Source: Laetmonice hystrix (taxonomy: Eukaryota). From it: 64,000 nucleotides of DNA. A model generated the notes under the pieces. It had not been told where the DNA came from and ran no database searches. It saw nothing but the letters and a program-made list of their open reading frames with translations. This document shows, in pieces, positions 1 through 20,031 of the stretch. Every line of letters starts with the position of its first letter. Position 1 is the stretch's first letter. Location of the stretch: the NCBI GenBank assembly GCA_965235115.1, contig OZ249436.1, positions 18,416,001-18,480,000 on the forward strand, read 5' to 3'. The translations under genes were made by a program, and so were the position numbers.

Positions 1-119
1 TATGGTTGTTGGTACTATTGTTAGCATTGGCAATGTTATTATTATAATGTTAACTGTTATCATTGATATTGTGATAATTATTATTATTATTGTTATTTTA
101 TTGTTATTTTATTGTTATT
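1..119. repeat. Degenerate (TTA/TTG)n low-complexity tract, left flank of the nested element stack
   Basis: Imperfect TTA/TTG/ATT triplets. A matching tract resumes at 17822. Confidence 0.85.
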
Positions 120-376
120 ATCCCATTTCCCTGACGGGGAAATGGGATTTTGATTTTGTATGGTTTCGTCTACACTATTATTATTATCCCATTTCCCTGA
201 CGGGGAAATGGGATTTTGATTTTGTATGGTTTCGTCTACACTATTATTATTATCCCATTTCCCTGACGGGGAAATGGGATTTTGATTTTGTATGGTTTCG
301 TCTACACTATTATTATTATTATCCCATTTCCCTGACGGGGAAATGGGATTTTGATTTTGTATGGTTTCGTCTACAC
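120..376 (+). mobile_element. Four stacked 5' heads of Helitron/Helentron-like family B
   Basis: Identical 56-bp units ATCCCATTTCCC-TGACG-GGGAAATGGGAT...CTACAC start at 120, 186, 252 and 321, separated by TAT/TTA runs. The same head precedes B bodies at 10509, 13421 and 14911. Confidence 0.85.
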
Positions 377-1101
377 TATTATTATCCCATTCCCCTGTAC
401 AGGGGAATGGGATTTTGAAGTTGTCGTGTTTGCGTGTACTTTATTATTATTATTATTATTATTGTGGTTGTAAGACAAGGGTCATATCTCAACAAGTTTT
501 CAGAATATCTCAATGAAACTTGGCCGAACCATAGATCATGGGCCTAAGAGCTCATATCATTTTGCGTCAAGTCATATGACATACCGTCATGACGTTATGA
601 CGTCATAAAGACGGTTTTTAAGGGCATGGAAGCCACCTCATCTTCGAGTACCAAGAGCATCTAGCCAAAAGTCATTCAAAGCAGGGCCTTAGCACTTAGG
701 GGGCAATAATTTTCTTCATCAGTTTGACCTCTGTCCTATGACCTGTCTGACTTGAAGGTCAAAACATAGATAACAGTCAAAATGTTTCTCCTCTTTCATT
801 TTTCGCAGACTCTTCTCCTGCTTTGGTTTATACCTTCTCCATATTGGGGCTGATCGACTGATGCCAAAATTTTTGAAATGTGACGTCATATGACCCAGTC
901 ACCTGACATCAAAATTTGGTTCTTTGGCCAGTGTACCAGAATTAAGTCATAGCTCAACCAGTTTTCGACCGATCCCAATGAAACTTCGTGTGCTTTAACA
1001 GGGTGGGATGCAGAGCCAAATTTATGCAAATTTTCTTCAATGACGTAACAGTGACGTCATCCACCTAATTAAAATAGGACTTCAGTAGTTAAATAGATGT
1101 G

Positions 1102-1189
1102 ATCCTCGATAGCTCAGTGGGTAATACACCCGACATAACGGCTGAAGATCATGGGTTCAATTCCCACCAAGGGCAGATCTTTTTTTTTT
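1102..1189 (+). promoter_or_regulatory. tRNA-derived Pol III-like module inside family A (repeated in each A body)
   Basis: A-box-like TAGCTCAGTGGG at 1110-1121, B-box GGTTCAATTCC at 1154-1164, T-run at 1180-1189. No clean cloverleaf. The 3' half is duplicated at ~1208-1270. Confidence 0.6.
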
Positions 1190-1710
1190 CGTTTTTCTTG
1201 TCACAAAGGCTGAAGATCATGGGTTCAATTCCCACCAAGGACAGATTTTTTTTTTCGTTTTTCTTGTCAGACAGTACAGCTCATCTCTTTAAATGCTTAG
1301 GAGGCCTAGGCAGGGGAAATGTTGTCATGTTTTTTTTTCTTTATTAATTTTTGATATAGAATTGGAGTACTGAGACAGTAGCGGTTTCTAACTCATTTTT
1401 CGAGTTATCTGGATGAAACTTGCAGTAAAAATTGACCACAGGAGGAATTCCTCGACTTATATAATAATACATCATGTGACACCATGACGTCATGAATACA
1501 TTATGAATAGTGCAACCTGGTACTGCACCAGGAAAAGCTATCCAGAATTCTTTTATGCCATCTTCGTGCCCCTTAGGGGTCTCTAAATGTTAAAATTCAT
1601 TTGACCTCTGACCTATGCCATTTGTCAGGTACAGATCACAGGTTTGGAAACAGTCAAAACTTTATTTATGTGGAAATGTTTTGACAAAATTGCTCACAAA
1701 ATTAAAACCA

Positions 1711-1915
1711 TTTTTTCTCTGGGGTTATGTGAAAACCAAGGTGTACACCAGTCCCCCAGGAACACTTGATGAACTTCGCAATCCCATAATCATAGCTTTT
1801 CAAGAAATTCTGCATGATATGGTAACCAGAGCAATCGAAAGTATGTGACGCCGAGCAGTGATCTGTGAAGGCAACCATGGATTCCATGTTGAAGAACTCT
1901 TTATGGAGGATTAAA
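1711..1915 (+). pseudogene. Tc1/mariner transposase C-terminal fragment captured in family A (copies at ~3304-3508 and ~9115-9320)
   Basis: Translates FFLWGYVKTKVYTSPPGTLDELRNPIIIAFQEILHDMVTRAIESM*RRAVICEGNHGFHVE, which resembles the region after the SPDL motif of Tc1/mariner transposases. It contains an in-frame stop. Confidence 0.75.
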
Positions 1916-2057
1916 TTCAGCAAAAATTACCCTTTGCATGCAAGAAATGCAATAAATGTTTTGTTTTAATTCTTAACCATCATGGAATTAACCATTAACA
2001 GGGAATGGGATCCATTGTTGCCTGCAACAAGCCTGACTAGTTATTATTATTATTATT

Positions 2058-3633
2058 GTGGTTGTAAGACAAGGGTCATATCTCAACAAGTTTTCAGAAT
2101 ATCTCAATGAAACTTGGCCGAACCATATATCATGGGCCTAAGAGCTCATATCATTTTGCGTCAAGTCATATGACATACCGTCATGACGTTATGACGTCAT
2201 AAAGACGGTTTTTAAGGGCATGGAAGCCACCTCATCTTCGAGTACCAAGAGCATCTAGCCAAAAGTCATTCAAAGCAGGGCCTTAGCACTTAGGGGGCAA
2301 TAATTTTCTTCATCAGTTTGACCTCTGTCCTATGACCTGTCTGACTTGAAGGTCAAAACATAGATAACAGTCAAAATGTTTCTCCTCTTTCATTTTTCGC
2401 AGACTCTTCTCCTGCTTTGGTTTATACCTTCTCCATATTGGGGCTGATCGACTGATGCCAAAATTTTTGAAATGTGACGTCATATGACCCAGTCACCTGA
2501 CATCAAAATTTGGTTCTTTGGCCAGTGTACCAGAATTAAGTCATAGCTCAACCAGTTTTCGACCGATCCCAATGAAACTTCGTGTGCTTTAACAGGGTGG
2601 GATGCAGAGCCAAATTTATGCAAATTTTCTTCAATGACGTAACAGTGACGTCATCCACCTAATTAAAATAGGACTTCAGTAGTTAAATAGATGTGATCCT
2701 CGATAGCTCAGTGGGTAATACACCCGACATAACGGCTGAAGATCATGGGTTCAATTCCCACCAAGGGCAGATCTTTTTTTTTTCGTTTTTCTTGTCACAA
2801 AGGCTGAAGATCATGGGTTCAATTCCCACCAAGGACAGATTTTTTTTTCGTTTTTCTTGTCAGACAGTACAGCTCATCTCTTTAAATGCTTAGGAGGCCT
2901 AGGCAGGGGAAATGTTGTCATGTTTTTTTTTCTTTATTAATTTTTGATATAGAATTGGAGTACTGAGACAGTAGCGGTTTCTAACTCATTTTTCGAGTTA
3001 TCTGGATGAAACTTGCAGTAAAAATTGACCACAGGAGGAATTCCTCGACTTATATAATAATACATCATGTGACACCATGATGTCATGAATACATTATGAA
3101 TAGTGCAACCTGGTACTGCACCAGGAAAAGCTATCCAGAATTCTTTTATGCCATCTTCGTGCCCCTTAGGGGTCTCTAAATGTTAAAATTCATTTGACCT
3201 CTGACCTATGCCATTTGTCAGGTACAGATCACAGGTTTGGAAACAGTCAAAACTTTATTTATGTGGAAATGTTTTGACAAAATTGCTCACAAAATTAAAA
3301 CCATTTTTTCTCTGGGGTTATGTGAAAACCAAGGTGTACACCAGTCCCCCAGGAACACTTGATGAACTTCGCAATCCCATAATCATAGCTTTTCAAGAAA
3401 TTCTGCATGATATGGTAACCAGAGCAATCGAAAGTATGTGACGCCGAGCAGTGATCTGTGGAGGCAACCATGGATTCCATGTTGAAGAACTCTTTATGGA
3501 GGATTAAATTCAGCAAAAATTACCCTTTGCATGCAAGAAATGCAATAAATGTTTTGTTTTAATTCTTAACCATCATGGAATTAACCATTAACAGGGAATG
3601 GGATCCATTGTTGCCTGCAACAAGCCTGACTAG
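2058..3633 (+). mobile_element. Family A body without an adjacent head
   Basis: Near-identical to 464-2040 (few SNPs). Preceded only by (TTA)n. Ends subTIR-hairpin-CTAG. Confidence 0.85.
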
Positions 3634-3638
3634 TTATT

Positions 3639-6600
3639 ATCCCATTCCCCTGTACAGGGGAATGGGATTTTGAAGTTGTCGTGTTTGCGTGTACTTTATT
3701 ATTATCCCTTCCCCCGATAGGGGAAGGGATCTTGAAATTGTCTGGTTTCGTCTTCCTTATTTTTATGCCTGTAGTAGTCGTGGTCGTCGTCGTAGTAGTA
3801 GTAGTAGTAAACCTATACGTATATCTCAGTCATTTTTGAAGATATCTCAATGAAACTTGGGATATGGCTTGACGGTGACAAACTCTGATCTCATGGTGCG
3901 TCATGACGTCACGTGACGTCACGTCATGACGTGATAACGTAAAACGTGTTTTGTGCATTAAAGGCATTTTTGAACCTTATCTTGGGAATTTCCAAAACCT
4001 GTTGTTGCTTTATAGTCAGGCAAGGTTGTTGCATAATTTGGACCCTTCATTTGACCTTTGACCTTTGAACTTAGGAAGACCTGGGTGCTAGCTCACAAAT
4101 CGCTTAAATCATATCTCCTTCCCCATTTTTTTATAAAATTTGACTATATTTGGCAGAAGCACTCTCTAGGGAGAGCTCCACTAGATTCCTGGGCGGCTAA
4201 GCGATTTGACCTATTTTGGCTGAACCACGTGACCTGAAAGTTTAGAACTTGGGCTTGACTTAGGTCATTTCGAAGATTCTGTGCTGTAACTCTTGAATGA
4301 TTTGAGACAGAGCCATAATTTTTAATGAACCTTAGAAAGTTTTATGTCTACTTTAATTAGGTACCATATTTTTTGTGCCACGTGAATTGTGACGTCATCT
4401 ACAACGTCATCTACAACGTAATCTCTTTCTTAATTTGGGGCACGTCTCAACTACGGGACAATAAGCTCAGCGTTTTAATATTTACACGGTGTGGACTTAA
4501 AATGTCTACTTTAAGATATTATAAATTTCAATTGGCGAAATATATAATTAACAATACGGAGATCAATTATATAAGAGAAGGTCGTGAAGAGAGACAGGCA
4601 ATTTGACCACTGATCAAGTGACCTAGAAACCTGGTTTCGTGAGTGATGTCAGGGCCTCGCTCGGTGTCCGCGTGAAGGGGGCCGACTGCGGACGCTGAGC
4701 CTATCGGCCTCTGTATTAATAAGTATCTAATATTTCTGCCTAAAACTATGGGGAGTACTTCAGGTACATATTTAGCTCAATGTCAGGCAACTTTGAAGAG
4801 AAGATTCCAAGTCTCGGAAGGGAACTCGCCATGTGAAGACCGAAGCTATTTACTAACAAATCTCAGCAATGGCGTTCTCCATAACGTTAGTAAGTCCACA
4901 CTGCAGACAGTGGCGTATATGCTGTATGTTTCGTCATTAAACGTGAAATATAGCTGTAAATTATCTGTAGCCAAATGACTGGCAATTATCAAGGGGAGAA
5001 ACATAATATTTTTCAAATTCAGGACTCTACTTCGAAAAAAAACATCAAAACGAAAACAGCAAATGACTTGATGGGGAATCGAACGCCAGACCTGTTGCAT
5101 ATTGAGCATACTCTTCTAAAGAGCTATTACGTTCTGTTGGATGCTACTGCTTTGAATTGCTACTGATGCCTGTCTTTGTAAATATTTAATGTAGACTTTT
5201 GCTTTGAAAGTCGATGTATAAATTAAACATTTATAGCTCCTTGTGTATAACGTTTGAATAAGTATGGCTGCGTTTTGGCTAAGGAAATGGCTAGAGTAAG
5301 AAATCAAAAACCCATCTCGTTAGCACACAATCAACCGTGGGGGGGGGGGGGGGGGGCGAAGTTTGACACCAGGTAGCAGCACGTCTCGACTATACACTGT
5401 CCTCACGCTAGGGGGCCGGGCCCTGGCGGCGGCAGATGGAGTGAGCAGTTCTAAGTATACTATACTATCCCTGACCCTGTTCCTTTGCCTCCATCGATGT
5501 TGTGAATAAACATATTGTATTGTATTGAATTGAGAATATCTGGGCCAGGGATGGTCACATATCAATATGTCGGCTAAATATCAGGGACCCCCTACCTTCC
5601 ACATCTATTGGGACTCACTCAATAGGCCTATTAAATATGAGGGACCCCCTACCTGCCGCATATCGCCCCTTTCTACCACATGGCGATATGTGGCAGCCCC
5701 TGACCCGGGCGAGGCGTGCTGCGACCTGGTGCTGAACATTGAAACTAGAGAAATGGCATGTGACCTAAATGGCATGTGACATTGAATTTGGATCATAGCC
5801 ATTTTTAAGAAACAAATGACTGTAACTCTGAAACCGTCTAAGATAGAGCCATGGTTACTACTGAACATGAATAGTAAGTCATAGATACTCTTTCAATTGA
5901 CACCAACATTTTTACCTATCGTGATGTATGAACTATGACGTCATAGTGACGTCATTCACATTTTCTAAGGTTTTCAGAGGTTTGTAACTCCTAAACGGTG
6001 CTAGATAAGACCATAGTTACTTATTTCATGAATAGATCTTATTATACCTCATCAGGATTTGTAAAATCGTGGAACCCCTCAAAACTCGCAATTTAAAATT
6101 AAATTTCTTAGCTTTTATTGAATTAAACACCTAGAAAAGGTTGAAAAATTGTTCCCGATCTATTTTATTTCAAACAAAGCTGGCTGGGGAAAAGGGGGGA
6201 CTGCCATCGAGGCAGGTTAAAATCAATTTACGATCTTTGTTTTGTCTAAACATGTACAAGTTCATATATGCAGGCCCGTATATAGGGTGGGGCACATTTT
6301 AAATTCAAATTCTGCTCTTTCAAATAACACCAACATTTACGTCATATGACGTGACGTCATGACGTAATTTGATGTTTTGGGAAGTACCTCATTGTACCAC
6401 ATTGTACCAGTCCCGTGATCAGTTAGAGAAACTTCATTCATAGCACCCAGCTTGCCTCTTGACGGGGAATCATTTTATTTATCAATTTGACCTCTGACCC
6501 TTGACATTCTTGAGATCTAGGTTACAGGTCAAAATGTGACTATTTCAATACTCCTCTCACAATTTTTGACAAATCGAGCCCAAATTGATACCAGGGAATC

Positions 6601-9444
6601 TCCATAGTATTCCCCAAAGGCCCGGGATTAGACTTGGTGTTGTGCCCTATTTTTAGCATACCACGTGACATCGGAATTGGGTCATAGCCATTGGCTGTAA
6701 CTCTGAAACCGTGTAAGATAGAGCCATGGTTACTATTGAACATGAATAGGAAGTCATATATGCTCTTTCAATTGACACCAAGATTTATGACGTCATGTGA
6801 CGTATAACGTCATAATGACGTCATCAGCATTTTCAGAGGCCTATAACTCTTAAACTGTGCTAGATAGGGCCATTGTTACTATTGAACACGAATAGGAACT
6901 CATAGATGCTCTTTCAAATGACACCAAGATTTACGTCATATGACCTGACGTCATGACGTAATTTGGTGTTTTGGGAAGTACCTCATTGTGCCTCATTGTA
7001 CCAGTCCCATGATCAGTTAGACAAAATTCATTCATAGCACTTAGCTTGCAACTTGAGAGGGAATAATTTTATTCAACAATTTGACCTCTGACCTTTGACC
7101 TTCTTGAAATCTAGGTTACAGCTCAAAATGTGACTAATTCGCCTCTCCTCCAACAAATTTTGACAAATCGAGCCCAAATTGATACCAGGGAATCTCCATG
7201 GGGTTTCCCAGATCCCCGGGATCAGACTAAGGGCTGGGCACTATTTTCAGCATACCATGTGACATCGAAATTGGGTCATATCCATTTTTGAGAAACAAAT
7301 GGCGGTAACTTTGAAACGGTGTAAGATAGAGCCATGGTTACTATTGAACATGAATAAGAAGTCATATATGCTCTTTCGAATGCCACCAACCTTTTTGACC
7401 TATCATCACGTATGACGTCATAATGACGTCATTGCCATTTTCTAAGGATTTTCAGAGGCCTGTAACTCCTAAACGGTGCTAGATACGATCATAGTTACTA
7501 TTGAACCCGAATAGGAACTCATAGATGCTCTTTTCAGTTACCAAGACTTATGACGTCGTGTGACGTATAACGTCATAATGACCTCATAATACACCAATGC
7601 CAGTTGTGCCATTGTTATAGCCATACTAATCGCCATGTCTGGTTTTGGCTAGGTACACGTCATGGCTAGGTACACGTCACGTAGTTGTACACGTCTTGGC
7701 TAGGTGCACGTCATGTAGATAAATGGGAAATGGGATCTGGTGTTGCCTAGCAACACCTATTGCCTCGTTATCATTATTTTTATTATTGCTTAATTGTTCC
7801 TCGTCATGGGAAGGGATCCCTGTATTGCTTTAGCAATCAGTCGGGCTAGTTATTATTATTATTATTGTGGTTGTAAGACAAGGGTCATATCTCAACAAGT
7901 TTTCAGAATATCTCAATGAAACTTGGCCGAACCATAGATCATGGGCCTAAGAGCTCATATCATTTTGCGTCAAGTCATATGACATACCGTCATGACGTTA
8001 TGACGTCATAAAGACGGTTTTTAAGGGCATGGAAGCCACCTCATCTTCGAGTACCAAGAGCATCTAGCCAAAAGTCATTCAAAGCAGGGCCTTAGCACTT
8101 AGGGGGCAATAATTTTCTTCATCAGTTTGACCTCTGTCCTATGACCTGTCTGACTTGAAGGTCAAAACATAGATAACAGTCAAAATGTTTCTCCTCTTTC
8201 ATTTTTCGCAGACTCTTCTCCTGCTTTGGTTTATACCTTCTCCATATTGGGGCTGATCGACTGATGCCAAAATTTTTGAAATGTGACGTCATATGACCCA
8301 GTCACCTGACATCAAAATTTGGTTCTTTGGCCAGTGTACCAGAATTAAGTCATAGCTCAACCAGTTTTCGACCGATCCCAATGAAACTTCGTGTGCTTTA
8401 ACAGGGTGGGATGCAGAGCCAAATTTATGCAAATTTTCTTCAATGACGTAACAGTGACGTCATCCACCTAATTAAAATAGGACTTCAGTAGTTAAATAGA
8501 TGTGATCCTCGATAGCTCAGTGGGTAATACACCCGACATAACGGCTGATGATCATGGGTTCAATTCCCACCAAGGGCAGATCTTTTTTTTTTCGTTTTTC
8601 TTGTCACAAAGGCTGAAGATCATGGGTTCAATTCCCACCAAGGACAGATTTTTTTTTTCGTTTTTCTTGTCAGACAGTACAGCTCATCTCTTTAAATGCT
8701 TAGGAGGCCTAGGCAGGGGAAATGTTGTCATGTTTTTTTTTTCTTTATTAATTTTTGATATAGAATTGGAGTACTGAGACAGTAGCGGTTTCTAACTCAT
8801 TTTTCGAGTTATCTGGATGAAACTTGCAGTAAAAATTGACCACAGGAGGAATTCCTCGACTTATATAATAATACATCATGTGACACCATGACGTCATGAA
8901 TACATTATGAATAGTGCAACCTGGTACTGCACCAGGAAAAGCTATCCAGAATTCTTTTATGCCATCTTCGTGCCCCTTAGGGGTCTCTAAATGTTAAAAT
9001 TCATTTGACCTCTGACCTATGCCATTTGTCAGGTACAGATCACAGGTTTGGAAACAGTCAAAACTTTATTTATGTGGAAATGTTTTGACAAAATTGCTCA
9101 CAAAATTAAAACCATTTTTTCTCTGGGGTTATGTGAAAACCAAGGTGTACACCAGTCCCCCAGGAACACTTGATGAACTTCGCAATCCCATAATCATAGC
9201 TTTTCAAGAAATTCTGCATGATATGGTAACCAGAGCAATCGAAAGTATGTGACGCCGAGCAGTGATCTGTGGAGGCAACCATGGATTCCATGTTGAAGAA
9301 CTCTTTATGGAGGATTAAATTCAGCAAAAATTACCCTTTGCATGCAAGAAATGCAATAAATGTTTTGTTTTAATTCTTAACCATCATGGAATTAACCATT
9401 AACAGGGAATGGGATCCATTGTTGCCTGCAACAAGCCTGACTAG
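3639..9444 (+). mobile_element. Family A element split by element C (head 3639-3695, body 7867-9444)
   Basis: The A head is followed by TTATTATT and then the C head. After C's CTAG (7849) the TTA tract resumes and runs into the A body, which ends CTAG at 9444. Confidence 0.85.
3704..7849 (+). mobile_element. Non-autonomous Helitron/Helentron-like element, family C (composite, ~4.1 kb)
   Basis: Head ATCCCTTCCCC-CGATA-GGGGAAGGGAT at 3704-3730, 3' subTIR GGGAAGGGAT at 7808-7817, hairpin ATTGCT-TT-AGCAAT, CTAG end. Internal imperfect repeats at ~5760-7600 resemble family D. Confidence 0.8.
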
Positions 9445-9455
9445 TTATTATTATT

Positions 9456-10497
9456 CCTGTTGTAAGACAAAGTGTATATCTCGGTCACTTTTTAAGATAG
9501 CAGGTTGAAACTTGCAGGGAGGGTTCATCATGGGATGAAGATCTGTGCATATGAAGCAGGACTTCATGCGACGTCATGTCTTGGTTTTATGACGTCTCAA
9601 ACACGTCACATGGAGCATCAATTTATCAACTCCCAACACAAAACTACTGTTACTTGGGGAAATATTGGTTATAGATCCTCTTCGTGGATGGTTCTCTAAG
9701 ATACTTGTTCCATAACTTGACCTTGGATCATTACCCTTTCTGAGATTCGGGTCAAAGGTCACAATATGGTTAAATCCTTACTACTCTCTCATTTTTTTGA
9801 AAATCTTGACTAAACCACTTCTGGATGTTCCTAGTGGATAGCTTAAAATTGTGGGGCCGTTGTTTAGCGATCGGACCTTTTTTCACTGAATCACGTGACA
9901 TCAAAGTTTGATTCTTTGGTCAGTTTACCAGAAATCGGTCATATCTCTGGCAGTTTTTAACAGATCTTAATGAAACTTGGTAGGCTTAAAGAGGATGGGA
10001 TGCTGAGCTAGATTTATGCAAACTTTTTTCTGTGACGTCACTCTTTTGTGTCATGAAGTCATCCACCTATTTCAAATAGGACCCAGGTACCTCTATACCC
10101 GTGAGTCTCAATAGCTGAGTGGGTAGCATGCCCGACCTAAAGGCTGGAGATCATCGGTTCGAATCCCACCAAGTACAAAAACTTTTTTCTCATTTTTCAG
10201 ACTCTGAAAACCAAAACACCACCAGGCAGGATATGAGGCCTTGTCACAGTCATAGTTATGAAATGTTTTGACATACATGGTTTTCAGAGATAATTTTCCC
10301 ATAACTTGACCTCTGTCAATTACCCTCTCTGAGATTTGGGACAAAGGTTCCAGGACTGACAGTAAAACCAAGATGGCAGAGTGGTAAGGCTATGGGCCAC
10401 TTTAGTTACTTGATAGCATACGAATGGCACCTGGCGTTTTCCTCATGACGTCCGGAGGAAATGGGATTAGTGTATTGCTTGCAATCATGATGTCTAG
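9456..10497 (+). mobile_element. Family B body, short form (single internal module), no adjacent head
   Basis: Starts CCTGTTGTAAGACAAAG after TTA. subTIR GGAAATGGGAT at 10457-10467, hairpin ATTGC-TT-GCAAT, ends TCTAG. Confidence 0.85.
10103..10188 (+). promoter_or_regulatory. tRNA-derived Pol III-like module inside family B (twice per long B body)
   Basis: A-box-like TAGCTGAGTGGG at 10112-10123, B-box GGTTCGAATCC at 10156-10166, T-run at 10183-10188. Confidence 0.6.
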
Positions 10498-10508
10498 TTA
10501 TTATTATT

Positions 10509-11994
10509 ATCCCATTTCCCTGACGGGGAAATGGGATTTTGATTTTGTATGGTTTCGTCTACACTATTATTATTATTATTATTATTCCTGTTGTAAGACA
10601 AAGTGTATATCTTGGTCAATTTTTAAGATAGCAGGTTGAAACTTGCAGGGAGGGTTCATCATGGGATGAAGATCTGTGCATATGAAGCAGGACTTCATGC
10701 GACGTCATGTCTTGGTTTTATGACGTCTCAAACACGTCACATGGAGCATCAATTTATCAACTCCCAACACAAAACTACTGTTACTTGGGGAAATATTGGT
10801 TATAGATCCTCTTCGTGGATGGTTCTCTAAGATACTTGTTCCATAACTTGACCTTGGATCATTACCCTTTCTGAGATTCGGGTCAAAGGTCACAATATGG
10901 TTAAATCCTTACTACTCTCTCATTTTTTTGAAAATCTTGACCAAACCACTTCTGGGTGTTCCTAGTGGATAGCTTAAAATTGTGGGGCCGTTGTTTAGCG
11001 ATCGGACCTTTTTTCACTGAATCACGTGACATCAAAGTTTGATTCTTTGGTCAGTTTACCAGAAATCGGTCATATCTCTGGCAGTTTTTAACAGATCTTA
11101 ATGAAACTTGGTAGGCTTAAAGAGGATGGGATGCTGAGCTAGATTTATGCAAACTTTTTTCTGTGACGTCACTCTTTTGTGTCATGAAGTCATCCACCTA
11201 TTTCAAATAGGACCCAGGTACCTCTATACCCGTGAGTCTCAATAGCTGAGTGGGTAGCATGCCCGACCTAAAGGCTGGAGATCATCGGTTCGAATCCCAC
11301 CAAGTACAAAAACTTTTTTCTCATTTTTCACACTCTGAAAACCAAAACACCACCAGGCAGGATATGAGGCCTTGTCACAGTCATAGTTATGAAATGTTTT
11401 GACATACATGGTTCTCAAAGATAAAGTTTACCAGAAATCGGTCATATCTCTGGCAGTTTTTAACAGATCTTAACGAAACTTAATAGGCTTAAAGAGGATG
11501 GGATGCTGAGCTAGATTTATGCAAACTTTTTTCTGTGACGTCACTCTTTTGTGTCATGACGTCATCCACCTATTTCAAATAGGACCTAGGTACCTCTACA
11601 AGCGTGAGTCTCAATAGCTGAGTTGGTAGCATGCCCGACCGGAGATCATGGGTTCGAATCCCACCAAATACGGAAATTTTTTTTTCTCATTTTTCAGACT
11701 CTGAATACCAAAACACCACCAGGCAGGATATGAGGCCTTGTCAAAATCATAGTTATGAAATATTTTGACATACATGGTTTTCAGAGATAATTTTCCCATA
11801 GCTTAACCTCTGTCAATTACCCTTTCTGAGATTTGGGACAAAGGTTCCAGGACTGACAGTAAAACCAAGATGGCAGAGTGGTAAGGCTATGGGCCACTTT
11901 AGTTACTTGATAGCATACGAATGGCACCTGGCGTTTTCCTCATGACGTCCGGAGGAAATGGGATTAGTGTATTGCTTGCAATCATGATGTCTAG
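10509..11994 (+). mobile_element. Family B complete copy (long form)
   Basis: Head at 10509, TTA pad, body from 10587 with a ~372-bp internal duplication (11053 and 11425), CTAG end. Confidence 0.85.
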
Positions 11995-12002
11995 TTATTA
12001 TT

Positions 12003-13418
12003 CCTGTTGTAAGACAAAGTGTATATCTCGGTCACTTTTTAAGATAGCAGGTTGAAACTTGCAGGGAGGGTTCATCATGGGATGAAGATCTGTGCATATG
12101 AAGCAGGACTTCATGCGACGTCATGTCTTGGTTTTATGACGTCTCAAACACGTCACATGGAGCATCAATTTATCAACTCCCAACACAAAACTACTGTTAC
12201 TTGGGGAAATATTGGTTATAGATCCTCTTCGTGGATGGTTCTCTAAGATACTTGTTCCATAACTTGACCTTGGATCATTACCCTTTCTGAGATTCGGGTC
12301 AAAGGTCACAATATGGTTAAATCCTTACTACTCTCTCATTTTTTTGAAAATCTTGACCAAACCACTTCTGGATGTTCCTGGTGGATAGCTTAAAATTGTG
12401 GGGCCGTTGTTTAGCGATCAGACCTTTTTTCACTGAATCACGTGACATCAAAGTTTGATTCTTTGGTCAGTTTACCAGAAATCGGTCATATCTCTGGCAG
12501 TTTTTAACAGATCTTAATGAAACTTGGTAGGCTTAAAGAGGATGGGATGCTGAGCTAGATTTATGCAAACTTTTTTCTGTGACGTCACTCTTTTGTGTCA
12601 TGAAGTCATCCACCTATTTCAAATAGGACCCAGGTACCTCTATACCCGTGAGTCTCAATAGCTGAGTGGGTAGCATGCCCGACCTAAAGGCTGGAGATCA
12701 TCGGTTCGAATCCTACCAAGTACAAAAGCTTTTTTCTCATTTGTCACACTCTGAAAACCAAAACACCACCAGGCAGGATATGAGGCCTTGTCACAGTCAT
12801 AGTTATGAAATGTTTTGACATACATGGTTCTCAAAGATAAAGTTTACCAGAAATCGGTCATATCTCTGGCAGTTTTTAACAGATCTTAACGAAACTTAAT
12901 AGGCTTAAAGAGGATGGGATGCTGAGCTAGATTTATGCAAACTTTTTTCTGTGACGTCACTCTTTTGTGTCATGACGTCATCCACCTATTTCAAATAGGA
13001 CCTAGGTACCTCTATACCCGTGAGTCTCAATAGCTGAGTGGGTAGCATGCCCGACCTAAAGGCCGGAGATCATGGGTTCGAATCCCACCAAATACGGAAA
13101 TTTTTTTTTCTCATTTTTCAGACTCTGAATACCAAAACACCACCAGGCAGGATATGAGGCCTTGTCAAAATCATAGTTATGAAATATTTTGACATACATT
13201 GTTTTCAGAGATAATTTTCCCATAACTTGACCTCTGTCAATTACCCTTTCTGAGATTTGGGACAAAGGTTCCAGGACTGACAGTAAAACCAAGATGGCAG
13301 AGTGGTAAGGCTATGGGCCACTTTAGTTACTTGATAGCATACGAATGGCACCTGGCGTTTTCCTCATGACGTCCGGAGGAAATGGGATTAGTGTATTGCT
13401 TGCAATCATGATGTCTAG
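12003..13418 (+). mobile_element. Family B body (long form), no adjacent head
   Basis: Near-identical to the other long B bodies. Ends CTAG. Confidence 0.85.
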
Positions 13419-13420
13419 TT

Positions 13421-14908
13421 ATCCCATTTCCCTGACGGGGAAATGGGATTTTGATTTTGTATGGTTTCGTCTACACTATTATTATTATTATTCCTGTTGT
13501 AAGACAAAGTGTATATCTCGGTCACTTTTTAAGATAGCAGGTTGAAACTTGCAGGGAGGGTTCATCATGGGATGAAGATCTGTGCATATGAAGCAGGACT
13601 TCATGCGACGTCATGTCTTGGTTTTATGACGTCTCAAACACGTCACATGGAGCATCAATTTATCAACTCCCAACACAAAACTACTGTTACTTGGGGAAAT
13701 ATTGGTTATAGATCCTCTTCGTGGATGGTTCTCTAAGATACTTGTTCCATAACTTGACCTTGGATCATTACCCTTTCTGAGATTCGGGTCAAAGGTCACA
13801 ATATGGTTAAATCCTTACTACTCTCTCATTTTTTTGAAAATCTTGACCAAACCACTTCTGGATGTTCCTGGTGGATAGCTTAAAATTGTGGGGCCGTTGT
13901 TTAGCGATCAGACCTTTTTTCACTGAATCACGTGACATCAAAGTTTGATTCTTTGGTCAGTTTACCAGAAATCGGTCATATCTCTGGCAGTTTTTAACAG
14001 ATCTTAATGAAACTTGGTAGGCTTAAAGAGGATGGGATGCTGAGCTAGATTTATGCAAACTTTTTTCTGTGACGTCACTCTTTTGTGTCATGAAGTCATC
14101 CACCTATTTCAAATAGGACCCAGGTACCTCTATACCCGTGAGTCTCAATAGCTGAGTGGGTAGCATGCCCGACCTAAAGGCTGGAGATCATCGGTTCGAA
14201 TCCTACCAAGTACAAAAGCTTTTTTCTCATTTGTCACACTCTGAAAACCAAAACACCACCAGGCAGGATATGAGGCCTTGTCACAGTCATAGTTATGAAA
14301 TGTTTTGACATACATGGTTCTCAAAGATAAAGTTTACCAGAAATCGGTCATATCTCTGGCAGTTTTTAACAGATCTTAACGAAACTTAATAGGCTTAAAG
14401 AGGATGGGATGCTGAGCTAGATTTATGCAAACTTTTTTCTGTGACGTCACTCTTTTGTGTCATGACGTCATCCACCTATTTCAAATAGGACCTAGGTACC
14501 TCTATACCCGTGAGTCTCAATAGCTGAGTGGGTAGCATGCCCGACCTAAAGGCCGGAGATCATGGGTTCGAATCCCACCAAATACGGAAATTTTTTTTTC
14601 TCATTTTTCAGACTCTGAATACCAAAACACCACCAGGCAGGATATGAGGCCTTGTCAAAATCATAGTTATGAAATATTTTGACATACATTGTTTTCAGAG
14701 ATAATTTTCCCATAACTTGACCTCTGTCAATTACCCTTTCTGAGATTTGGGACAAAGGTTCCAGGACTGACAGTAAAACCAAGATGGCAGAGTGGTAAGG
14801 CTATGGGCCACTTTAGTTACTTGATAGCATACGAATGGCACCTGGCGTTTTCCTCATGACGTCCGGAGGAAATGGGATTAGTGTATTGCTTGCAATCATG
14901 ATGTCTAG
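13421..14908 (+). mobile_element. Family B complete copy
   Basis: Head follows the previous CTAG-TT directly. Body appears identical to 12003-13418 (1490-bp period). Confidence 0.85.
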
Positions 14909-14910
14909 TT

Positions 14911-16397
14911 ATCCCATTTCCCTGACGGGGAAATGGGATTTTGATTTTGTATGGTTTCGTCTACACTATTATTATTATTATTCCTGTTGTAAGACAAAGT
15001 GTATATCTCGGTCACTTTTTAAGATAGCAGGTTGAAACTTGCAGGGAGGGTTCATCATGGGATGAAGATCTGTGCATATGAAGCAGGACTTCATGCGACG
15101 TCATGTCTTGGTTTTATGACGTCTCAAACACGTCACATGGAGCATCAATTTATCAACTCCCAACACAAAACTACTGTTACTTGGGGAAATATTGGTTATA
15201 GATCCTCTTCGTGGATGGTTCTCTAAGATACTTGTTCCATAACTTGACCTTGGATCATTACCCTTTCTGAGATTCGGGTCAAAGGTCACAATATGGTTAA
15301 ATCCTTACTACTCTCTCATTTTTTTGAAAATCTTGACCAAACTACTGCTGGATGTTCCTGGTGGATAGCTTAAAATTGTGGGGCCGTTGTTTAGCGATCG
15401 GACCTTTTTTCACTGAATCACGTGACATCAAAGTTTGATTTTTTGGTCATTTTACCAGAAATCGGTCATATCTCTGGCAGTTTTTAACAGATCTTAATGA
15501 AACTTGGTAGGCTTAAAGAGGATGGGATGCTGAGCTAGATTTATGCAAACTTTTTTCTGTGACGTCACTCTTTTGTGTCATGAAGTCATCCACCTATTTG
15601 TAATAGGACCTAGGTACCTCTACAAGCATGAGTCTCAATAGCTGAGTGGGTAGCATGCCCGACCTAAAGGCTGGAGATCATCGGTTCGAATCCCACCAAG
15701 TACAAAAACTTTTTTCTCATTTTTCACACTCTGAAAACCAAAACACCACCAGGCAGGATATGAGGCCTTGTCACAGTCATAGTTATGAAATGTTTTGACA
15801 TACATGGTTCTCAAAGATAAAGTTTACCAGAAATCGGTCATATCTCTGGCAGTTTTTAACAGATCTTAATGAAACTTAGTAGGCTTAAAGAGGATGGGAT
15901 GCTGAGCTAGATTTATGCAAACTTTTTTCTGTGACGTCACTCTTTTGTATCATGACGTCATCCACCTACTTTAAATAGGACCTAGGTACCTCTACAAGCA
16001 TGAGTCTCAATAGCTGAGTGGGTAGCATGCCCGACCTAAAGGCTGGAGTTCATGGGTTCGAATCCCACCAAATACAGAATTTTTTTTTCTCATTTTTCAG
16101 ACTCTGAATACCAAAACACCACCAGGCAGGATATGAGACCTTGTCAAAATCATAGTTATGAAATATTTTGACATACATGGTTTTCAGAGATAATTTTCCC
16201 ATAACTTGACCTCTGTCAATTACCCTTTCTGAGATTTGGGACAAAGGTTCCAGGACTGACAGTAAAACCAAGATGGCAGAGTGGTAAGGCTATGGGCCAC
16301 TTTAGTTACTTGATAGCATACGAATGGCACCTGGCGTTTTCCTCATGACGTCCGGAGGAAATGGGATTAGTGTATTGCTTGCAATCATGATGTCTAG
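14911..16397 (+). mobile_element. Family B complete copy
   Basis: Head, pad, long body with private SNPs, CTAG end. Confidence 0.85.
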
Positions 16398-16405
16398 TTA
16401 TTATT

Positions 16406-17821
16406 CCTGTTGTAAGACAAAGTGTATATCTCGGTCACTTTTTAAGATAGCAGGTTGAAACTTGCAGGGAGGGTTCATCATGGGATGAAGATCTGTGCAT
16501 ATGAAGCAGGACTTCATGCGACGTCATGTCTTGGTTTTATGACGTCTCAAACACGTCACATGGAGCATCAATTTATCAACTCCCAACACAAAACTACTGT
16601 TACTTGGGGAAATATTGGTTATAGATCCTCTTCGTGGATGGTTCTCTAAGATACTTGTTCCATAACTTGACCTTGGATCATTACCCTTTCTGAGATTCGG
16701 GTCAAAGGTCACAATATGGTTAAATCCTTACTACTCTCTCATTTTTTTGAAAATCTTGACCAAACCACTTCTGGATGTTCCTGGTGGATAGCTTAAAATT
16801 GTGGGGCCGTTGTTTAGCGATCGGACCTTTTTTCACTGAATCACGTGAGATCAAAGTTTGATTCTTTGGTCAGTTTACCAGAAATCGGTCATATCTCTGG
16901 CAGTTTTTAACAGATCTTAATAAAACTTGGTAGGCTTAAAGAGGATGGGATGCTGAGCTAGATTTATGCAAACTTTTTTCTGTGACGTCACTCTTTTGTG
17001 TCATGAAGTCATCCACCTATTTCAAATAGGACCCAGGTACCTCTATACCCGTGAGTCTCAATAGCTGAGTGGGTAGCATGCCCGACCTAAAGGGTGGAGA
17101 TCATGGGTTCGAATCCCACCAAGTACGAAAACTTTTTTCTCATTTTCCACACTCTGAAAACCAAAACACCACCAGGCAGGATATGAGGCCTTGTCACAGT
17201 CATAGTTATGAAATGTTTTGACATACATGGTTCTCAAAGATAAAGTTTACCAGAAATCGGTCATATCTCTGGCAGTTTTTAACAGATCTTAATGAAACTT
17301 AGTAGGCTTAAAGAGGATGGGATGCTGAGCTAGATTTATGCAAACTTCTTTCTGTGACGTCACTCTTTTGTGTCATGACGTCATCCACCTATTTCAAATA
17401 GGACCTAGGTACCTCTACAAGCGTGAGTCTCAATAGCTGAGTTTGTAGCATGCCCGATCTAAAGGCCGGACATCATGGGTTCGAATCCTACCAAATACGG
17501 AAATTTTATTTTCTCATTTTTCAGACTCTGAATACCAAAACACCCCCAGGCAGGATATGAGGCCTTGTCAAAATCATAGTTATGAAATATTTTGACATAC
17601 ATGGTTTTCAGAGATAATCTTCCCATAACTTGACCTCTGTCAATTACCCTTTCTGAGATTTGGGACAAAGTCTGGACGCCGGACAGTAAAACCAAGACGG
17701 CAGAGTGGTAAGGCTATGGGCCACTTTAGTTACTTGATAGCATACGAATGGCACCTGGCGTTTTCCTCATGACGTCCGGAGGAAATGGGATTAGTGTATT
17801 GCTTGCAATCATGATGTCTAG
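16406..17821 (+). mobile_element. Family B body (outermost, most diverged 3' part), no adjacent head
   Basis: Long body with more private substitutions at ~17440-17700. CTAG end abuts the host microsatellite. Confidence 0.85.
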
Positions 17822-17829
17822 TTATATTG

Positions 17830-17868
<39 letters not shown>

Positions 17869-17935
17869 TATTATTAATGTTGTTGTTATTATTATTAATA
17901 TTGTTAATATTGTTATTATTATTGTTATAATGTAA
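17822..17935. repeat. Degenerate (TTA/TTG)n tract, right flank of the stack
   Basis: Same composition as 1-119. Confidence 0.85.
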
Positions 17936-18604
17936 TAGCGGCACTTTCGTTAGGTGTTATTGTTGCGCTTGTATAATGAGGCTAATAGTGTGTCTCCCTT
18001 GTTTAGCATTATGGACTATGCAGGTGATCTATAGGTGCAATATGGTGTCATCTTGTACATTGGATGGGGTGGTTAGAAAACGTGCGGTAGCGGAGTCAGG
18101 GGTTCCAGCATTCTTGGTCAGTTACTCTGTCGAAGTCACCTGGTGGTTAGGTGGGTACTTGGTTAAGGTTTACGGTCACGGTGGCTGGCGAGAGGAGTGC
18201 GATATTGATCCATCTTCGGTGTAGGTATAACGATAATAGGGTCCCAAGACGTGACTCCTTATTAGGTCACTGCAAGGACAGGTCCTGCCATTTTGTCTCC
18301 AAGCCTCGATATGTCGGTGGGACTTCCCTCATACTATTACCTCTCAGTGTGATCAGTAGTATCAGGGATTGGTCTTTGATTGTAGCCTACTTAGGTATCC
18401 TGGTTTGGGGTCGGGGGGTTCACTGTAATCGGTGTAAATGTAGGCTTATGGCCCCGATACGTCATGAGATTCATGTGTGTGGGAGTTTGATGGTATTGCT
18501 TGAAAGGGAAAGTTGGCTATAGGCCTTTTCGTGTGATGCGGTTTGGGGGCCCTAATATGACACCAGAGAACAATGTTGGGAAGCTGGGTACCTGGCTATA
18601 CGGG

Positions 18605-20031
18605 GTAACTTGGCTGTCCTTTGCCTGAAGCTTCAGGGGGATTTGTCGACGGTTGGGACGGTAGTGTATCAAAAATTAGGTGCTGGTACTTATGTATGGT
18701 TATCGCCGGCGGAACATTGAGCCCGCAGCGCGGGGGAGAACCATCGACTTCAGCAACATTTTTCTCACAACGTTTTCCAGGCTTGTGGATCGGATACCTG
18801 CCGTTTAAGATACGGCTGATTGGGCCAGTGGTCGTCAGTCGCTTTTCGCCTTAACAGATCCGTCTCCCCTGGTTGGTGGTTGGGCCCGGGATGACGGTGT
18901 AACTTGACTGTCCTCTGCCTGAAGCTTCGGGGGGAATTTGTCGACGGTTGGGACGGTAGTGTATCGGAAATTAGATGCTGGTACTTATGTATGGTTATCC
19001 GGCGGAACATTAGTTCTCTCACCCGCAGCGCGGGGGAGAACCATCGACTTCAGCAACATTTTTCTCACAACGTTTTCCAGGCCTGTGGATTGGATACCTG
19101 CCGTTTAAGATACGGCTGATTGGGCCAGTGGTCGTCAGTCGCTTTTCGCCTGTACAGATCAGTCTGCCCTGGTTGGTGGTTGGGCCCGGGATGACTCGGG
19201 TCATCCGGTTGGCGCAGTCGGGCCCAAGAGGGTCCGGGAAGAAGCATTTTGAGCGTTATCATCAAAAGGGGTCTACAAGTAAATTGAATGTTCCTCTTCC
19301 CGCAGCCGCGGGGAGGACATCGGTCGCATAGGTTTAGAAGAGTCTATCGGTATTGGGTTGTCTGCTGTATGGTTTAAGGTTCTCTTACCCGAAGCTTCGG
19401 GAGAGGACCCGGGAGGTCTATGTAAATTTCTATGGTCACGGAAGTGGCAATGTGGAGAAATAAAAGTATCTACAGAAGGAAAACTTGGTGTTCGAGTTGT
19501 GTGGAACTGAAAGGCAGATTTCGAAAGACGAAATGGTGTTTCAATCCACACAACGAGCCAGTATTTAAATTAGGCAAGGGACGGCACTTCATGTAAATTA
19601 GTCCCCGTCCTTGACCTCTGGTGGAACTATAAAAGTTGGGGCTTGTTTAGTTGCGGCTTGAATTCATCGACGTCACGACGGGGATCTCAAGAGGTGGTTC
19701 GTTTACCCTCCTCCTCCCCATCTGCCTCCTGTGGTAATTGGCGCTGTCGGGCCCAAGAGGGTCCGGGAAGAAGCATTTTGAGCGTTATCATCAAAAAGGG
19801 TCTACAAGTAAATTGAATGTTCCTCTTCCCGCAGCCGCGGGGAGGACATCGGTCGCATAGGTTTATCGGTATTGCGTTGTCTGCTGTATGGTTTAGGGTT
19901 CTCTTACCCAGAGCTTCGGGAGAGGACCCGGGAGGTCTATGTAAATTTCTATGGTCACGGAAGTGGCAATGTGGAGAAATAAAAGTATCTACAGAAGGAA
20001 AATTTGGTGTTTGAGTTGTGTGGAATTGAAA
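18605..20031. repeat. Two pairs of ~290-bp imperfect direct repeats (X1 18605-18895, X2 18899-19195; Y1 19217-19512, Y2 19746-20031), origin unknown
   Basis: Direct sequence comparison. GC-richer than the surroundings. No recognisable protein. Confidence 0.75.

Follow-up and report, generated by a model that had tools for sequence, protein, structure and literature searches.

A 17.7-kb array of Helentron derivatives in Laetmonice hystrix, probably built by nested insertion into element-borne TTA repeats with later reshuffling

The window analysed here, a 64,000-nucleotide stretch of Laetmonice hystrix contig OZ249436.1, contains a 17.7-kb block (positions 120-17821) that consists of an array of small rolling-circle elements. 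We consider it probable, at roughly 80%, that three related families of non-autonomous Helentron derivatives (HINEs), A, B and C, make up this block, nested one within another. Nested insertion into (TTA)n tracts carried by the elements themselves is well supported as the process behind the array, and some reshuffling by unequal recombination, following repeated landing in the elements' own TTA repeats, is likely to have contributed to its present order. An earlier note on this DNA had drawn attention to the heads, tails and TTA junctions of the array, and our analysis confirms that these are real. Array structure is described throughout as it is read in the genome assembly.

Results

The elements share a single layout, namely 5'-TTA, a hairpin head (subTIR plus its inverted repeat), (TTA)~7, a body, a 3' subTIR, a short palindrome and CTAG-3'. 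In family B, TCCCATTTCC at the 5' head and GGAAATGGGA near the tail are reverse complements of each other, the latter beginning 40 nt before the 3' end, and families A, C, F and G show the same subTIR arrangement, each with its own sequence. The heads fold as single-stranded DNA hairpins with stems of 11-13 bp (-12.8 to -14.9 kcal/mol, z -4.2 to -6.9). None of 200 shuffles folds as well, and the stem sequence varies among A, B and C while the pairing is kept. Between the 3' subTIR and the end lies a palindrome, which reads TTGTTGCCTGCAACAA in A, ATTGCTTTAGCAAT in C and ATTGCTTCAGCAAT in F; that of B, ATTGCTTGCAAT, is visible in the sequence, with no stable fold predicted. Only two open reading frames of at least 90 aa occur in positions 1-18,000, one of 138 aa, whose first 40 codons (to position 119) lie in the host flank and whose remainder runs through the head stack, and one of 91 aa. 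Searches of the block for tRNAs and Rfam families returned zero matches.

Subterminal inverted repeats, a 5' hairpin, a 3' palindrome, TT insertion without target duplication and the non-coding nature of the elements together place them with the Helentrons and HINEs. The canonical Helitron (Helitron1) was considered as an alternative class, as TC...CTAG ends are present and an A^T cut is possible, but was rejected on the basis of the subterminal inverted repeats, the 5' hairpin and an endonuclease in relatives. The previous description of the elements as Helitron-like is therefore replaced by a Helentron/HINE assignment, with subterminal inverted repeats and a Rep/Hel/endonuclease partner.

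Host sequence of the same kind lies on both sides of the block, as had been claimed. The left flank (1..119), a TTA/TTG-rich low-complexity sequence (TRF rows 16-121), holds the outermost element, B120, and a (TAT/TTA)n tract resumes on the right at 17822..17928 (TRF period 3, 35 copies); both are TTA/TTG-rich microsatellite. Heads and tails were located by comparing their sequences with the window by BLAST. B heads (55 nt) lie at 120, 186, 252, 321, 10509, 13421 and 14911, A heads at 384 and 3639, and a C head at 3706, with 100% identity within each type. Tails ending in CTAG are found at 2040, 3633 and 9444 for A, at 7849 for C, and at 10497, 11994, 13418, 14908, 16397 and 17821 for B. No further A, B or C head or tail was detected by BLAST anywhere else in the window.

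When heads are read as opening and tails as closing brackets, the ten heads and ten tails stand in the order originally proposed, with depth reaching a maximum of 5 and returning to 0 at 17821. The junctions all lie in TTA, heads following TTATTA or CTAG+TTA and tails being followed by TTA. The claimed balance holds at 10:10 when types are ignored, but not by type. The presence of seven B heads with six B tails, and of two A heads with three A tails, forces head B321 onto the A-body at 2058-3633, the one type mismatch in the window. A single TTA-mediated deletion would explain this pairing.

All elements of the block lie on the forward strand. It opens with a head stack (120..438) of B heads at 120-174, 186-240, 252-306 and 321-375 and an A head at 384-438, each a hairpin with a 12-13-bp stem followed by a 25-nt tail (-12.8 and -14.9 kcal/mol, z -4.8 and -6.9). 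The five stacked heads are separated by (TTA)n spacers of 8-14 nt, and TRF reports a period of 66 with 5.2 copies at positions 110-453, in agreement with the minisatellite appearance described before. A-body 1 (464..2040) closes head A384 and ends with subTIR GGGAATGGGA, the palindrome TTGTTGCCTGCAACAA and CTAG, while A-body 2 (2058..3633), lacking an A head of its own, is given head B321 by the bracket parse. A further A element (3639..9444; head 3639-3693, body 7867-9444) carries within its (TTA)n a 4.1-kb C element (3706..7849; head 3706-3758, tail 7849), whose central repeats are ~150 bp long and TGACGTCA-rich. Among the three A-bodies of the window (a1, a2 and a3), just 6 internal columns vary.

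The remainder of the block is formed by B elements. B-body 1 (9456..10497) is a short form of 1,042 nt with a single copy of the ~372-bp central repeat and closes B252. It is followed by a complete B element (10509..11994), comprising a head at 10509-10563, a 22-nt (TTA)n and a body at 10587-11994. B-body 3 (12003..13418) closes B186 and shows 0 mismatches to body 4 (13493-14908). The second copy of a tandem duplication occupies 13421..14982, with head B13421 and body 4 followed by head B14911 and its tract, and the tail-to-head junctions here, CTAG-TTA-TCCC, are precise end-to-end joins. B-body 5 (14983..16397) has its nearest relative at C2:2.55M, with 5 mismatches, and the outermost B-body 6 (16406..17821), which closes B120, has its nearest at C12:9.83M, with 3 mismatches. 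The nearest relatives of bodies 2, 5 and 6 all sit on other chromosomes.

The outermost insertions define the target. TTA precedes TCCC in 23 of 23 outermost insertions; the host bases before the insertion are T(-3) in 21/23, T(-2) in 14/23 and A(-1) in 18/23, and those after CTAG are T in 23/23 and then T in 22/23. The host target consensus is TTA^TT, that is, one microsatellite unit, and cut placements T^T and A^T both fit the 23 insertions. A paralogous empty site for locus L024 shows no target duplication and assigns the three extra nucleotides (TTA) to the element. The motif TTATT occurs at a density of ~4.1/kb in the non-array part of the window. Since insertion occurs without target duplication at TTA^TT, the (TTA)n behind every head amounts to a tandem array of the family's own target, on one strand only. 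All 94 of 94 A, B and C head and tail matches are co-oriented within their region (15 regions), which is to be expected, since the complementary strand, (TAA)n, contains no TT. That each insertion delivers a new target, as first suggested for this block, is borne out by the fresh ~22-nt tract found in eight of nine solitary B copies.

These solitary copies, and the nests described below, come from a wider search in which the best 40 of 1,747 B candidates and the best 40 of 701 A candidates were scored, a ranking by match length that favours TTA-flanked copies. The nine solitary B copies have host flank on each side, unique in eight cases and a host TTA repeat in the ninth (L019). Among B head-body junction matches, 10/20 lie inside another element, in a sample biased to TTA-flanked matches, and A-body starts lack a preceding A head in 13 of 22 strong matches, with eight A heads lacking a following A body. 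More than a dozen loci on other contigs repeat the architecture of the window, and these have flanks that are unique and bodies of distinct variants. With a capital letter or H for a head and a small letter or b for a tail or body, the locus C1:37.11M reads B A a b between unique flanks and represents a clean heterotypic nest; C1:29.26M reads B B F' f' b B b b, C12:9.83M reads BBBbbBbb, and C12:19.70M reads G B B b b G G g G G g g g g g.

Autonomous relatives in one family carry the same kind of termini. Full length without stops was seen in 105/125 Helitron_like_N matches, with open frames of 899-3,634 codons. An F-type body of 19.3 kb contains one Rep open reading frame, with the domains DUF6570, Helitron_like_N, PIF1 and Exo_endo_phos. 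The string E F F B b b precedes this body, which has an F head with (TTA)n on one side and an F tail on the other; its end is formed by the F subTIR, a palindrome and CTAG, after which come (TTA)n and a second F body. Two F heads match two Rep copies 19,276 bp apart. An autonomous Rep/helicase/endonuclease element between the same kind of termini, as the earlier note had called for, was therefore found, for family F only, and the landing pad is common to several related families, including one with autonomous copies at another locus.

Discussion

The anatomy and target preference of these elements enable us to propose a model for growth of the array. In this model, a Helentron transposase would insert at TTA^TT without target duplication, and, whichever family the enzyme serves, its new copies would land, in the same orientation, in the (TTA)n behind a head. 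Each landing would split the resident copy, placing its head to the left and its body to the right, such that, with repeated landing, heads would pile up on the 5' side and bodies would follow one another in mirror order on the 3' side. Modules may be duplicated or lost when bodies, or TTA tracts, undergo unequal homologous exchange, and transposition starting from one head and stopping at a non-cognate tail could generate composites such as HHb or Hbb; both processes would blur the bracket balance. A mechanism of this kind presumably underlies the preference for element-borne tracts.

Bracket balance does not hold as a law for each locus, contrary to what had been anticipated, as heads and tails differ in number by one at 6/13 closed multi-element loci elsewhere: L028 (HHb), C2:2.55M (Hbb), three loci with HHbbb, and C12:19.70M (7:8). 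At two of the three HHbbb loci the additional body is no copy of a neighbouring one, and the two bodies at C2:2.55M are divergent. Parts of the array, or many HHbb-type units, might accordingly have arrived as composites, running from the outer head to the outer tail of a nest elsewhere. This would still require one nesting but fewer independent events, and we regard it as unlikely. L028 and C2:2.55M, both with unique flanks, cannot be simple nests, and a B head stands directly before an A head at at least four loci. Moreover, the 66-nt head offset of the window is shared with C13:2.48M, C12:19.70M, C8:19.07M and C1:29.26M, so some HHbb units could have moved ready-made rather than been nested in place. 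Chellapan et al. (PMC5148889), in the part of that paper used here, proposed the same route to Helitrons with two 5' termini. However, the HHbb loci differ in the subfamily combination of their inner and outer bodies, so they are not copies of one composite, and their microsatellite lengths vary in steps of 3. We infer that insertion took place in situ.

It is highly improbable that one element was expanded by slippage and unequal crossing-over, as in a satellite, with no nested transposition at all. Unequal exchange has clearly acted: positions 12003-13492 and 13493-14982 are identical at 1,490/1,490 nt, with the match extending a further 8 nt on the left and 360 nt on the right, C21:16.77M contains identical adjacent bodies, and C4:21.53M reaches 6:6 only via a 3.78-kb segmental duplication that adds two tails. 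In addition, the B heads are all identical, and the off-by-one loci are common. Against this, bodies within arrays are as divergent as those on other chromosomes (medians 2.05% within arrays, 63 pairs, versus 2.19% between arrays, 1,828 pairs; p = 0.15), and only 4/63 within-array pairs differ by three mismatches or fewer. This absence of local homogenisation led us to reject an ordinary minisatellite or satellite. Different families are also stacked with their tails in mirror order. In the five closed arrays with at least two head classes, 28/30 tails pair with a head of the subTIR class to which they belong, compared with a mean of 17.0 and a maximum of 27 in 20,000 permutations of the tail labels. 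The B A a b nest with unique flanks would be impossible by slippage, and satellite-like expansion as the main process is largely refuted.

The proposed history of insertions into the (TTA)n of earlier copies thus stands in its main part, supported by nests, typed order and the independence of the bodies, but requires a correction: the perfect 1,490-bp identity means that the segment written 'B13421( B) B14911( B)', two of the ten supposed insertions, represents one insertion and a tandem duplication. The further expectation that inner copies would be younger than outer ones gave no signal, the median number of private substitutions being 3.0 in both groups (p = 0.62).

Very little probability attaches to the idea that head stacks arose by aberrant rolling-circle replication of a terminator-less circle and body stacks by 3'-end bypass, a model attributed to Xiong et al. 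2014 in the consulted section of a review (PMC12628747). L028 (HHb) has the shape that it predicts, and the CTAG-TTA-TCCC junctions are the joint expected of a circular intermediate. Nevertheless, a single circle can neither stack heads of different families nor give each head a divergent body in mirror order, and in the present sample bodies match most head stacks. An assembly artefact, whether a mis-join or a high-copy repeat expansion, is scarcely credible. The elements are high-copy and 98-100% alike, a perfect 1,490-bp repeat is something that an assembler can produce, and the sequencing runs found comprise short contigs only. However, the architecture recurs on other contigs with unique flanks and distinct bodies, and the window bodies lie 8-42 mismatches apart (bodies 3 and 4 being identical), which anchors the assembly.

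HINE/DINE-1-type elements are among the most abundant repeats of many invertebrate genomes, and we know of no agreed role for the microsatellite inside them. If the tract is the family's own target, this would provide one explanation for element clustering, many-5'-end arrays and the seeding of satellite-like arrays. It would also predict a self-limiting, low-damage amplification, as copies land in copies. We put forward only tentatively the broader proposal that the microsatellite is a portable target array (TTA^TT), kept as a preferred, strand-locked and harmless landing site for every family served, autonomous ones included. Recursive self-nesting might then be the primary source of 'multiple 5' termini' arrays, of composites formed by alternative head/tail choice and of TE-derived tandem repeats after unequal exchange. 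In practical terms, such loci will be mistaken by repeat annotators for a minisatellite with a 1.5-kb satellite; the true elements are recovered once heads and tails are parsed as brackets by subTIR class.

The element type and its proposed self-insertion are already known; use of the elements' own microsatellite as a reusable landing pad appears to be undescribed, and, as the earlier note had suspected, we found no description of recursive microsatellite landing-pad nesting in the literature. HINEs and DINE-1-like elements are non-autonomous partners of Helentrons (Thomas, Vadnagara & Pritham 2014, PMC4067079) and include Cg_HINE of the Pacific oyster (Vojvoda Zeljko et al. 2020, PMC7492417). 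On the portions of these two papers used here, they share with the array elements the 5' subTIR with its complementary inverted repeat, the microsatellite that comes after the left module, and the short palindrome downstream of the 3' subTIR. They also share TT insertion without target duplication, element-owned extra Ts at the ends, central tandem repeats and a Rep/Hel/endonuclease autonomous partner, possibly in opposite orientation. In the same portions the microsatellite is described as part of the structure, with no role assigned to it, and the word 'nested' is absent from the Cg_HINE text (PMC7492417). In the Laetmonice arrays, by contrast, the microsatellite motif is the target consensus TTA^TT and receives repeated same-strand insertions of several families.

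For FoHeli, a Helitron2-type element of Fusarium, self-insertion has been proposed to yield nested, composite and chimeric Helitrons (Chellapan et al. 2016, PMC5148889). A start at the outer 5' end and a stop at the first 3' end would there give an element with two 5' termini, a route that fits L028 (HHb). The part of that study drawn on here offers one nested example plus inferred cases, with no element-borne target tract, whereas nesting in the Laetmonice arrays reaches depth 5, is frequent and is strand-locked in a dedicated microsatellite. Truncated Helitron tandem arrays in which many 5' ends accompany a single 3' end (Xiong et al. 2014, as summarised in section 6 of PMC12628747) likewise resemble the Laetmonice arrays in their minisatellite-like 5'-end stacks. 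According to that summary, they are modelled as aberrant rolling-circle replication from one template, whereas the Laetmonice heads belong to different families and each have their own divergent body, in mirror order.

A simple repeat as preferred, strand-specific target also has parallels. Lepidopteran Helitron-like elements are said, after Coates et al. 2010, to disrupt (GAAA)n. MuTAnT targets TA microsatellites (PMC4486113), and Paramecium Helitrons have been proposed to enter telomeric repeats, creating internal same-polarity repeat blocks (PMC13085455). As far as the passages used from these sources extend, the target repeat is owned by the host in all three cases, whereas in Laetmonice it is carried by the transposon, so that each insertion renews it.

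Results

The array at window 120-17821 is assembled from units with the constant order TTA, hairpin head, (TTA)n, body, subterminal repeat, short palindrome and CTAG. In B, the head opens with 10 nt, TCCCATTTCC, that are the reverse complement of GGAAATGGGA, which starts 40 nt before the 3' end, and this complementarity between head and subterminal sequence is kept, with each family's own sequences, in families A and C of the window and in families F and G elsewhere in the genome. As single strands, the heads fold into hairpins with stems of 11-13 bp (-12.8 to -14.9 kcal/mol); none of 200 shuffled sequences folded as well. Only two ORFs of at least 90 aa lie in the array, one of which begins in the flank and crosses the head stack, and the array is without coding capacity. 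In the A bodies (window 1140-1269, 2734-2862 and 8543-8672) a tRNA-like 3' half (GGTTCAATTCCCACCAAGG...) is present as a 68-bp tandem duplication, which is followed by a T run. Searches of the array with ARAGORN and Rfam, which included the tRNA-like stretches of the bodies, returned no tRNA or Rfam matches.

The limits of the element could be defined at L024, a locus from the B search where a tandemly duplicated host sequence supplies a paralogous empty site. Insertion took place without target duplication, and three nucleotides (TTA, in some rotation) beyond TCCC...CTAG are the element's own, so that the CTAG-TTA-TCCC sequences at 13418/13421 and 14908/14911 in the window are precise end-to-end junctions. 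The host bases preceding 23 outermost insertions are T at -3 (21/23), T at -2 (14/23) and A at -1 (18/23), while CTAG is followed by T in all 23 and then by a second T in 22. These counts define a preferred site of TTA^TT, which is one period of the microsatellite that the elements themselves carry. Head and tail matches are co-oriented within their region in 94 of 94 cases across 15 regions, because the complementary (TAA)n strand offers no TT.

The subTIR, microsatellite, palindrome and TT insertion without duplication all match what has been published for HINEs, which are non-autonomous and depend on Helentrons as their partners. According to Thomas et al. 2014 (PMC4067079) and Vojvoda Zeljko et al. 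2020 (PMC7492417), a HINE has a subTIR next to its complementary inverted repeat, a left module that includes a microsatellite, and a 3' subTIR with a palindrome; it inserts at TT without duplication, the terminal Ts being part of the element.

To locate the heads and tails of the array, the window was searched by BLAST with the head and tail sequences that it contains. B heads lie at 120, 186, 252, 321, 10509, 13421 and 14911, A heads at 384 and 3639 and the single C head at 3706; CTAG ends of A tails lie at 2040, 3633 and 9444, of the C tail at 7849 and of B tails at 10497, 11994, 13418, 14908, 16397 and 17821. All are on the + strand with 100% identity within each type of head or tail, and there are no further A, B or C heads or tails in the window. 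The head stack is scored by Tandem Repeats Finder as a 66-bp minisatellite of 5.2 copies, and a host TTA/TTG-rich tract borders the block on both sides. The earlier note had read the locus as balanced brackets, each head opening and each body closing, with every junction in TTA. BLAST confirmed the ten heads and ten tails in the sequence given there, with nesting five levels deep that closes to zero at 17821, and each head is indeed preceded by TTATTA or CTAG+TTA and each tail followed by TTA. The balance holds for the total (10:10) but not by type, with seven B heads for six B tails and two A heads for three A tails, which leaves the B head at 321 with the A body at 2058-3633. It is plausible that a one-step deletion between two TTA tracts, an event reciprocal in kind to the duplication described below, produced exactly this mismatch, with the loss of one B body and the next A head. 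A chimeric element of B head and A body as its source gained no support from the single locus inspected, C1:37.11M, where the types of B A a b agree.

Window 12003-13492 and 13493-14982 are identical over all 1,490 nt, and the identity runs on beyond them, by 8 nt on the left and 360 nt on the right. This pattern is the mark of unequal homologous exchange between two bodies with a 368-nt identical stretch in common, and not of two separate insertions. Since this event adds one tail and one head, the count stays balanced. The flank of the array is present in three sequencing runs of one sample and study (shares 0.47-0.51), as short Logan contigs, matches to the joints being low-support repeat cross-matches; none of the listed pieces spans the array or shows an alternative haplotype. 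The assembly has only indirect support, in that an identical architecture is found again at many loci whose flanks are unique.

Beyond the window, a search with the B tail-head-body junction gave 1,747 candidates, of which 40 were scored, and heads and tails were parsed at the loci of the scored matches and in 20 extra 10-kb stretches. The resulting genome-wide test covers 15 regions and two match tables rather than a full census. The solitary head-pad-body copies anticipated by the earlier note were found: nine B copies have host flanks, unique in eight and a host TTA repeat at locus L019, and eight of the nine carry a 22-nt TTA tract. As for bracket balance per locus, which the earlier note proposed to test, seven of the 13 closed loci with more than one head or tail were balanced and six were off by one. 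With capitals for heads (H for head) and small letters for tails or bodies, the balanced loci comprise three HHbb loci, C1:37.11M, which has unique flanks, C1:29.26M (B B F' f' b B b b), C12:9.83M (BBBbbBbb) and C4:21.53M (6:6), although the equality at C4:21.53M offers no clean support because a 3.78-kb segmental duplication there added two tails. Those off by one are L028 (HHb) and C2:2.55M (Hbb, with two divergent bodies), both with unique flanks, three HHbbb loci, and C12:19.70M (G B B b b G G g G G g g g g g, 7:8).

Mixed stacks contain heads of at least seven classes. When the class of each tail was considered in the five closed arrays with at least two classes, using hand-transcribed strings, 28 of 30 tails closed a head of their own class; permutation of the tail labels within arrays gave a mean of 17.0 and a maximum of 27 of 30 in 20,000 trials.

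The frequency of nesting was gauged from the same matches and from an A-family search (701 candidates, 40 scored). Thirteen of 22 strong matches to the start of the A body, three of the 22 being the window's own, had no A head before them, and eight A heads, one from the window, had no A body behind them, indicating that most sampled A elements are split by an insert. Half of the B head-body junction matches (10/20) lay inside another element, a share that is an upper estimate since the ranking favors copies with TTA upstream. TTATT has a density of about 4.1 per kb in the 46 kb of window sequence that surrounds the array, where (TTA)3 is absent; a solitary B tract holds six TTATT-type sites. 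Element-borne tracts can thus make up no more than a minor share of all TTATT sites, so the preference for them is strong, whether it is directed at tandem TTA in general or at tracts beside a head hairpin.

An autonomous relative, for which the earlier note had called, was identified within F-type termini. Pfam Helitron_like_N has 125 matches in the genome (627 Mb, 35 contigs), of which 105 are full length with no internal stop, the open frames that hold them measuring 899-3,634 codons. One frame of 1,918 codons (its 5' side open in the stretch) contains DUF6570, Helitron_like_N, PIF1 helicase and Exo_endo_phos endonuclease, the domain set of a Helentron. It lies on the opposite strand in a body that directly follows the heads and tails E F F B b b. 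The end of this F body, 19.3 kb on, is formed by the F subTIR GGGGGATGGGA together with the palindrome ATTGCTTCAGCAAT and CTAG; beyond it come TTATTATTAT and the beginning of another F body. Two Rep copies are 19,276 bp apart, and with the second F body this matches the two F heads to the two Rep copies. The C tail of the window is very similar to the F tail of the Rep-bearing body. Long-frame Helitron_like_N matches also cluster at C5:29448625-29533159, with four copies about 27.9 kb apart and identical 2,855-codon open frames, and at C7:4651957-4694163, C8:29013615-29121429 and C12:28464136-29333985, which suggests tandem or nested arrays of autonomous Helentrons.

Other features were noted in the window. 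A solitary HINE with another head class (TTA-TCCCATCCCCACGGAGGGGATGGGA...) occupies 29652-31458 (+), with a C-like body start and central tandem repeats of about 150 bp (TRF 30494-31264, 5.3 copies); its tail consists of GGGGATGGGA, a palindrome and CTAG. Behind its head lies no TTA tract but a GTT-rich, degenerate stretch, and no element is nested in it, a single case whose contrast with the TTA-bearing copies is anecdotal. With 38 sites in the array (2.15 per kb), where it lies in bodies and central repeats of all three families, the CRE-like palindrome TGACGTCA reaches about seven times its density in window 17822-64000 (14 sites, 0.30 per kb). Sequences at 61186-61414 and 61975-62104, outside any recognized head/tail pair, have about 80% identity to the central repeat of the B body (about 372 bp) and could represent either an older relative or the origin of the captured repeat. 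Unrelated tandem duplications lie in the GC-richer region right of the array at 18600-19195 (300-bp unit, 2 copies, 91% identity) and 28954-29472 (260-bp unit, 2 copies, 100% identity).

Discussion

Insertion of these elements into the TTA pads of one another is real and frequent. The proposal of a nested insertion history is supported in part: brackets do not balance exactly as a rule, and some of the array is recombinational duplication.

Some HHbb units may have moved as ready packages, as the recurrence of the 66-nt head offset among loci hints. Against this, inner and outer bodies differ in their combination of subfamilies across loci, which argues that many nests arose independently. The summed TTA tract lengths across an insert (16-28, congruent modulo 3) fit in-register crossover and insertion alike. 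Slippage or unequal exchange as the main process is excluded by the typed mirror order (28/30) in combination with body divergence: the median is 2.05% within arrays (63 pairs) and 2.19% between arrays (1,828 pairs; p = 0.15), and only four of the 63 within-array pairs have three or fewer mismatches. In the window, bodies are 8-42 mismatches apart except for the identical third and fourth B bodies, and for the second, fifth and sixth B bodies the nearest relatives lie on other contigs. An origin by replication of one defective circle, a model attributed to Xiong et al. 2014 in section 6 of a review (PMC12628747), is excluded by the same order and divergence.

Nested insertion had been expected to leave inner copies younger than outer ones. 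No such signal emerged (median private substitutions 3.0 in head-adjacent bodies, n=31, and 3.0 in tail-adjacent bodies, n=25; p = 0.62), the families being too young for this test to measure an age difference. The other departures from balance fit two behaviors already known of Helitrons. One is local duplication, as at C21:16.77M, where the last two bodies are identical. The second is the mobilization of composites that start at one head and stop at a non-cognate tail, which would yield forms such as Hbb at C2:2.55M and HHb at L028. Chellapan et al. proposed such a start/stop route after self-insertion for Fusarium Helitrons with two 5' termini (PMC5148889).

Self-insertion, nested Helitrons and arrays with multiple 5' ends have already been published. 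Transposons that target a host microsatellite or repeat were reportedly described by Coates et al. in 2010. The element type and its microsatellite are likewise known (PMC4067079, PMC7492417), and so is the targeting of host microsatellites by MuTAnT (PMC4486113) and of telomeric repeats by Paramecium Helitrons (PMC13085455). In the Cg_HINE paper (PMC7492417) the word "nested" is absent, and the Donax paper does not settle what the microsatellite does (PMC3879986). In full-text searches of a literature collection with few subscription journals, we found no description of an element-borne microsatellite equal to its family's own target, of a renewable, strand-locked landing pad for several families including autonomous ones, or of an element microsatellite giving deep, mirror-ordered nests. 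That the microsatellite is maintained as a self-targeting safe harbor is a bold reading that we consider less likely than not. What appears to be new here, with earlier priority possible, is the use of an element-borne microsatellite as a reusable landing pad, set beside the host microsatellites and telomeric repeats targeted in the known systems.
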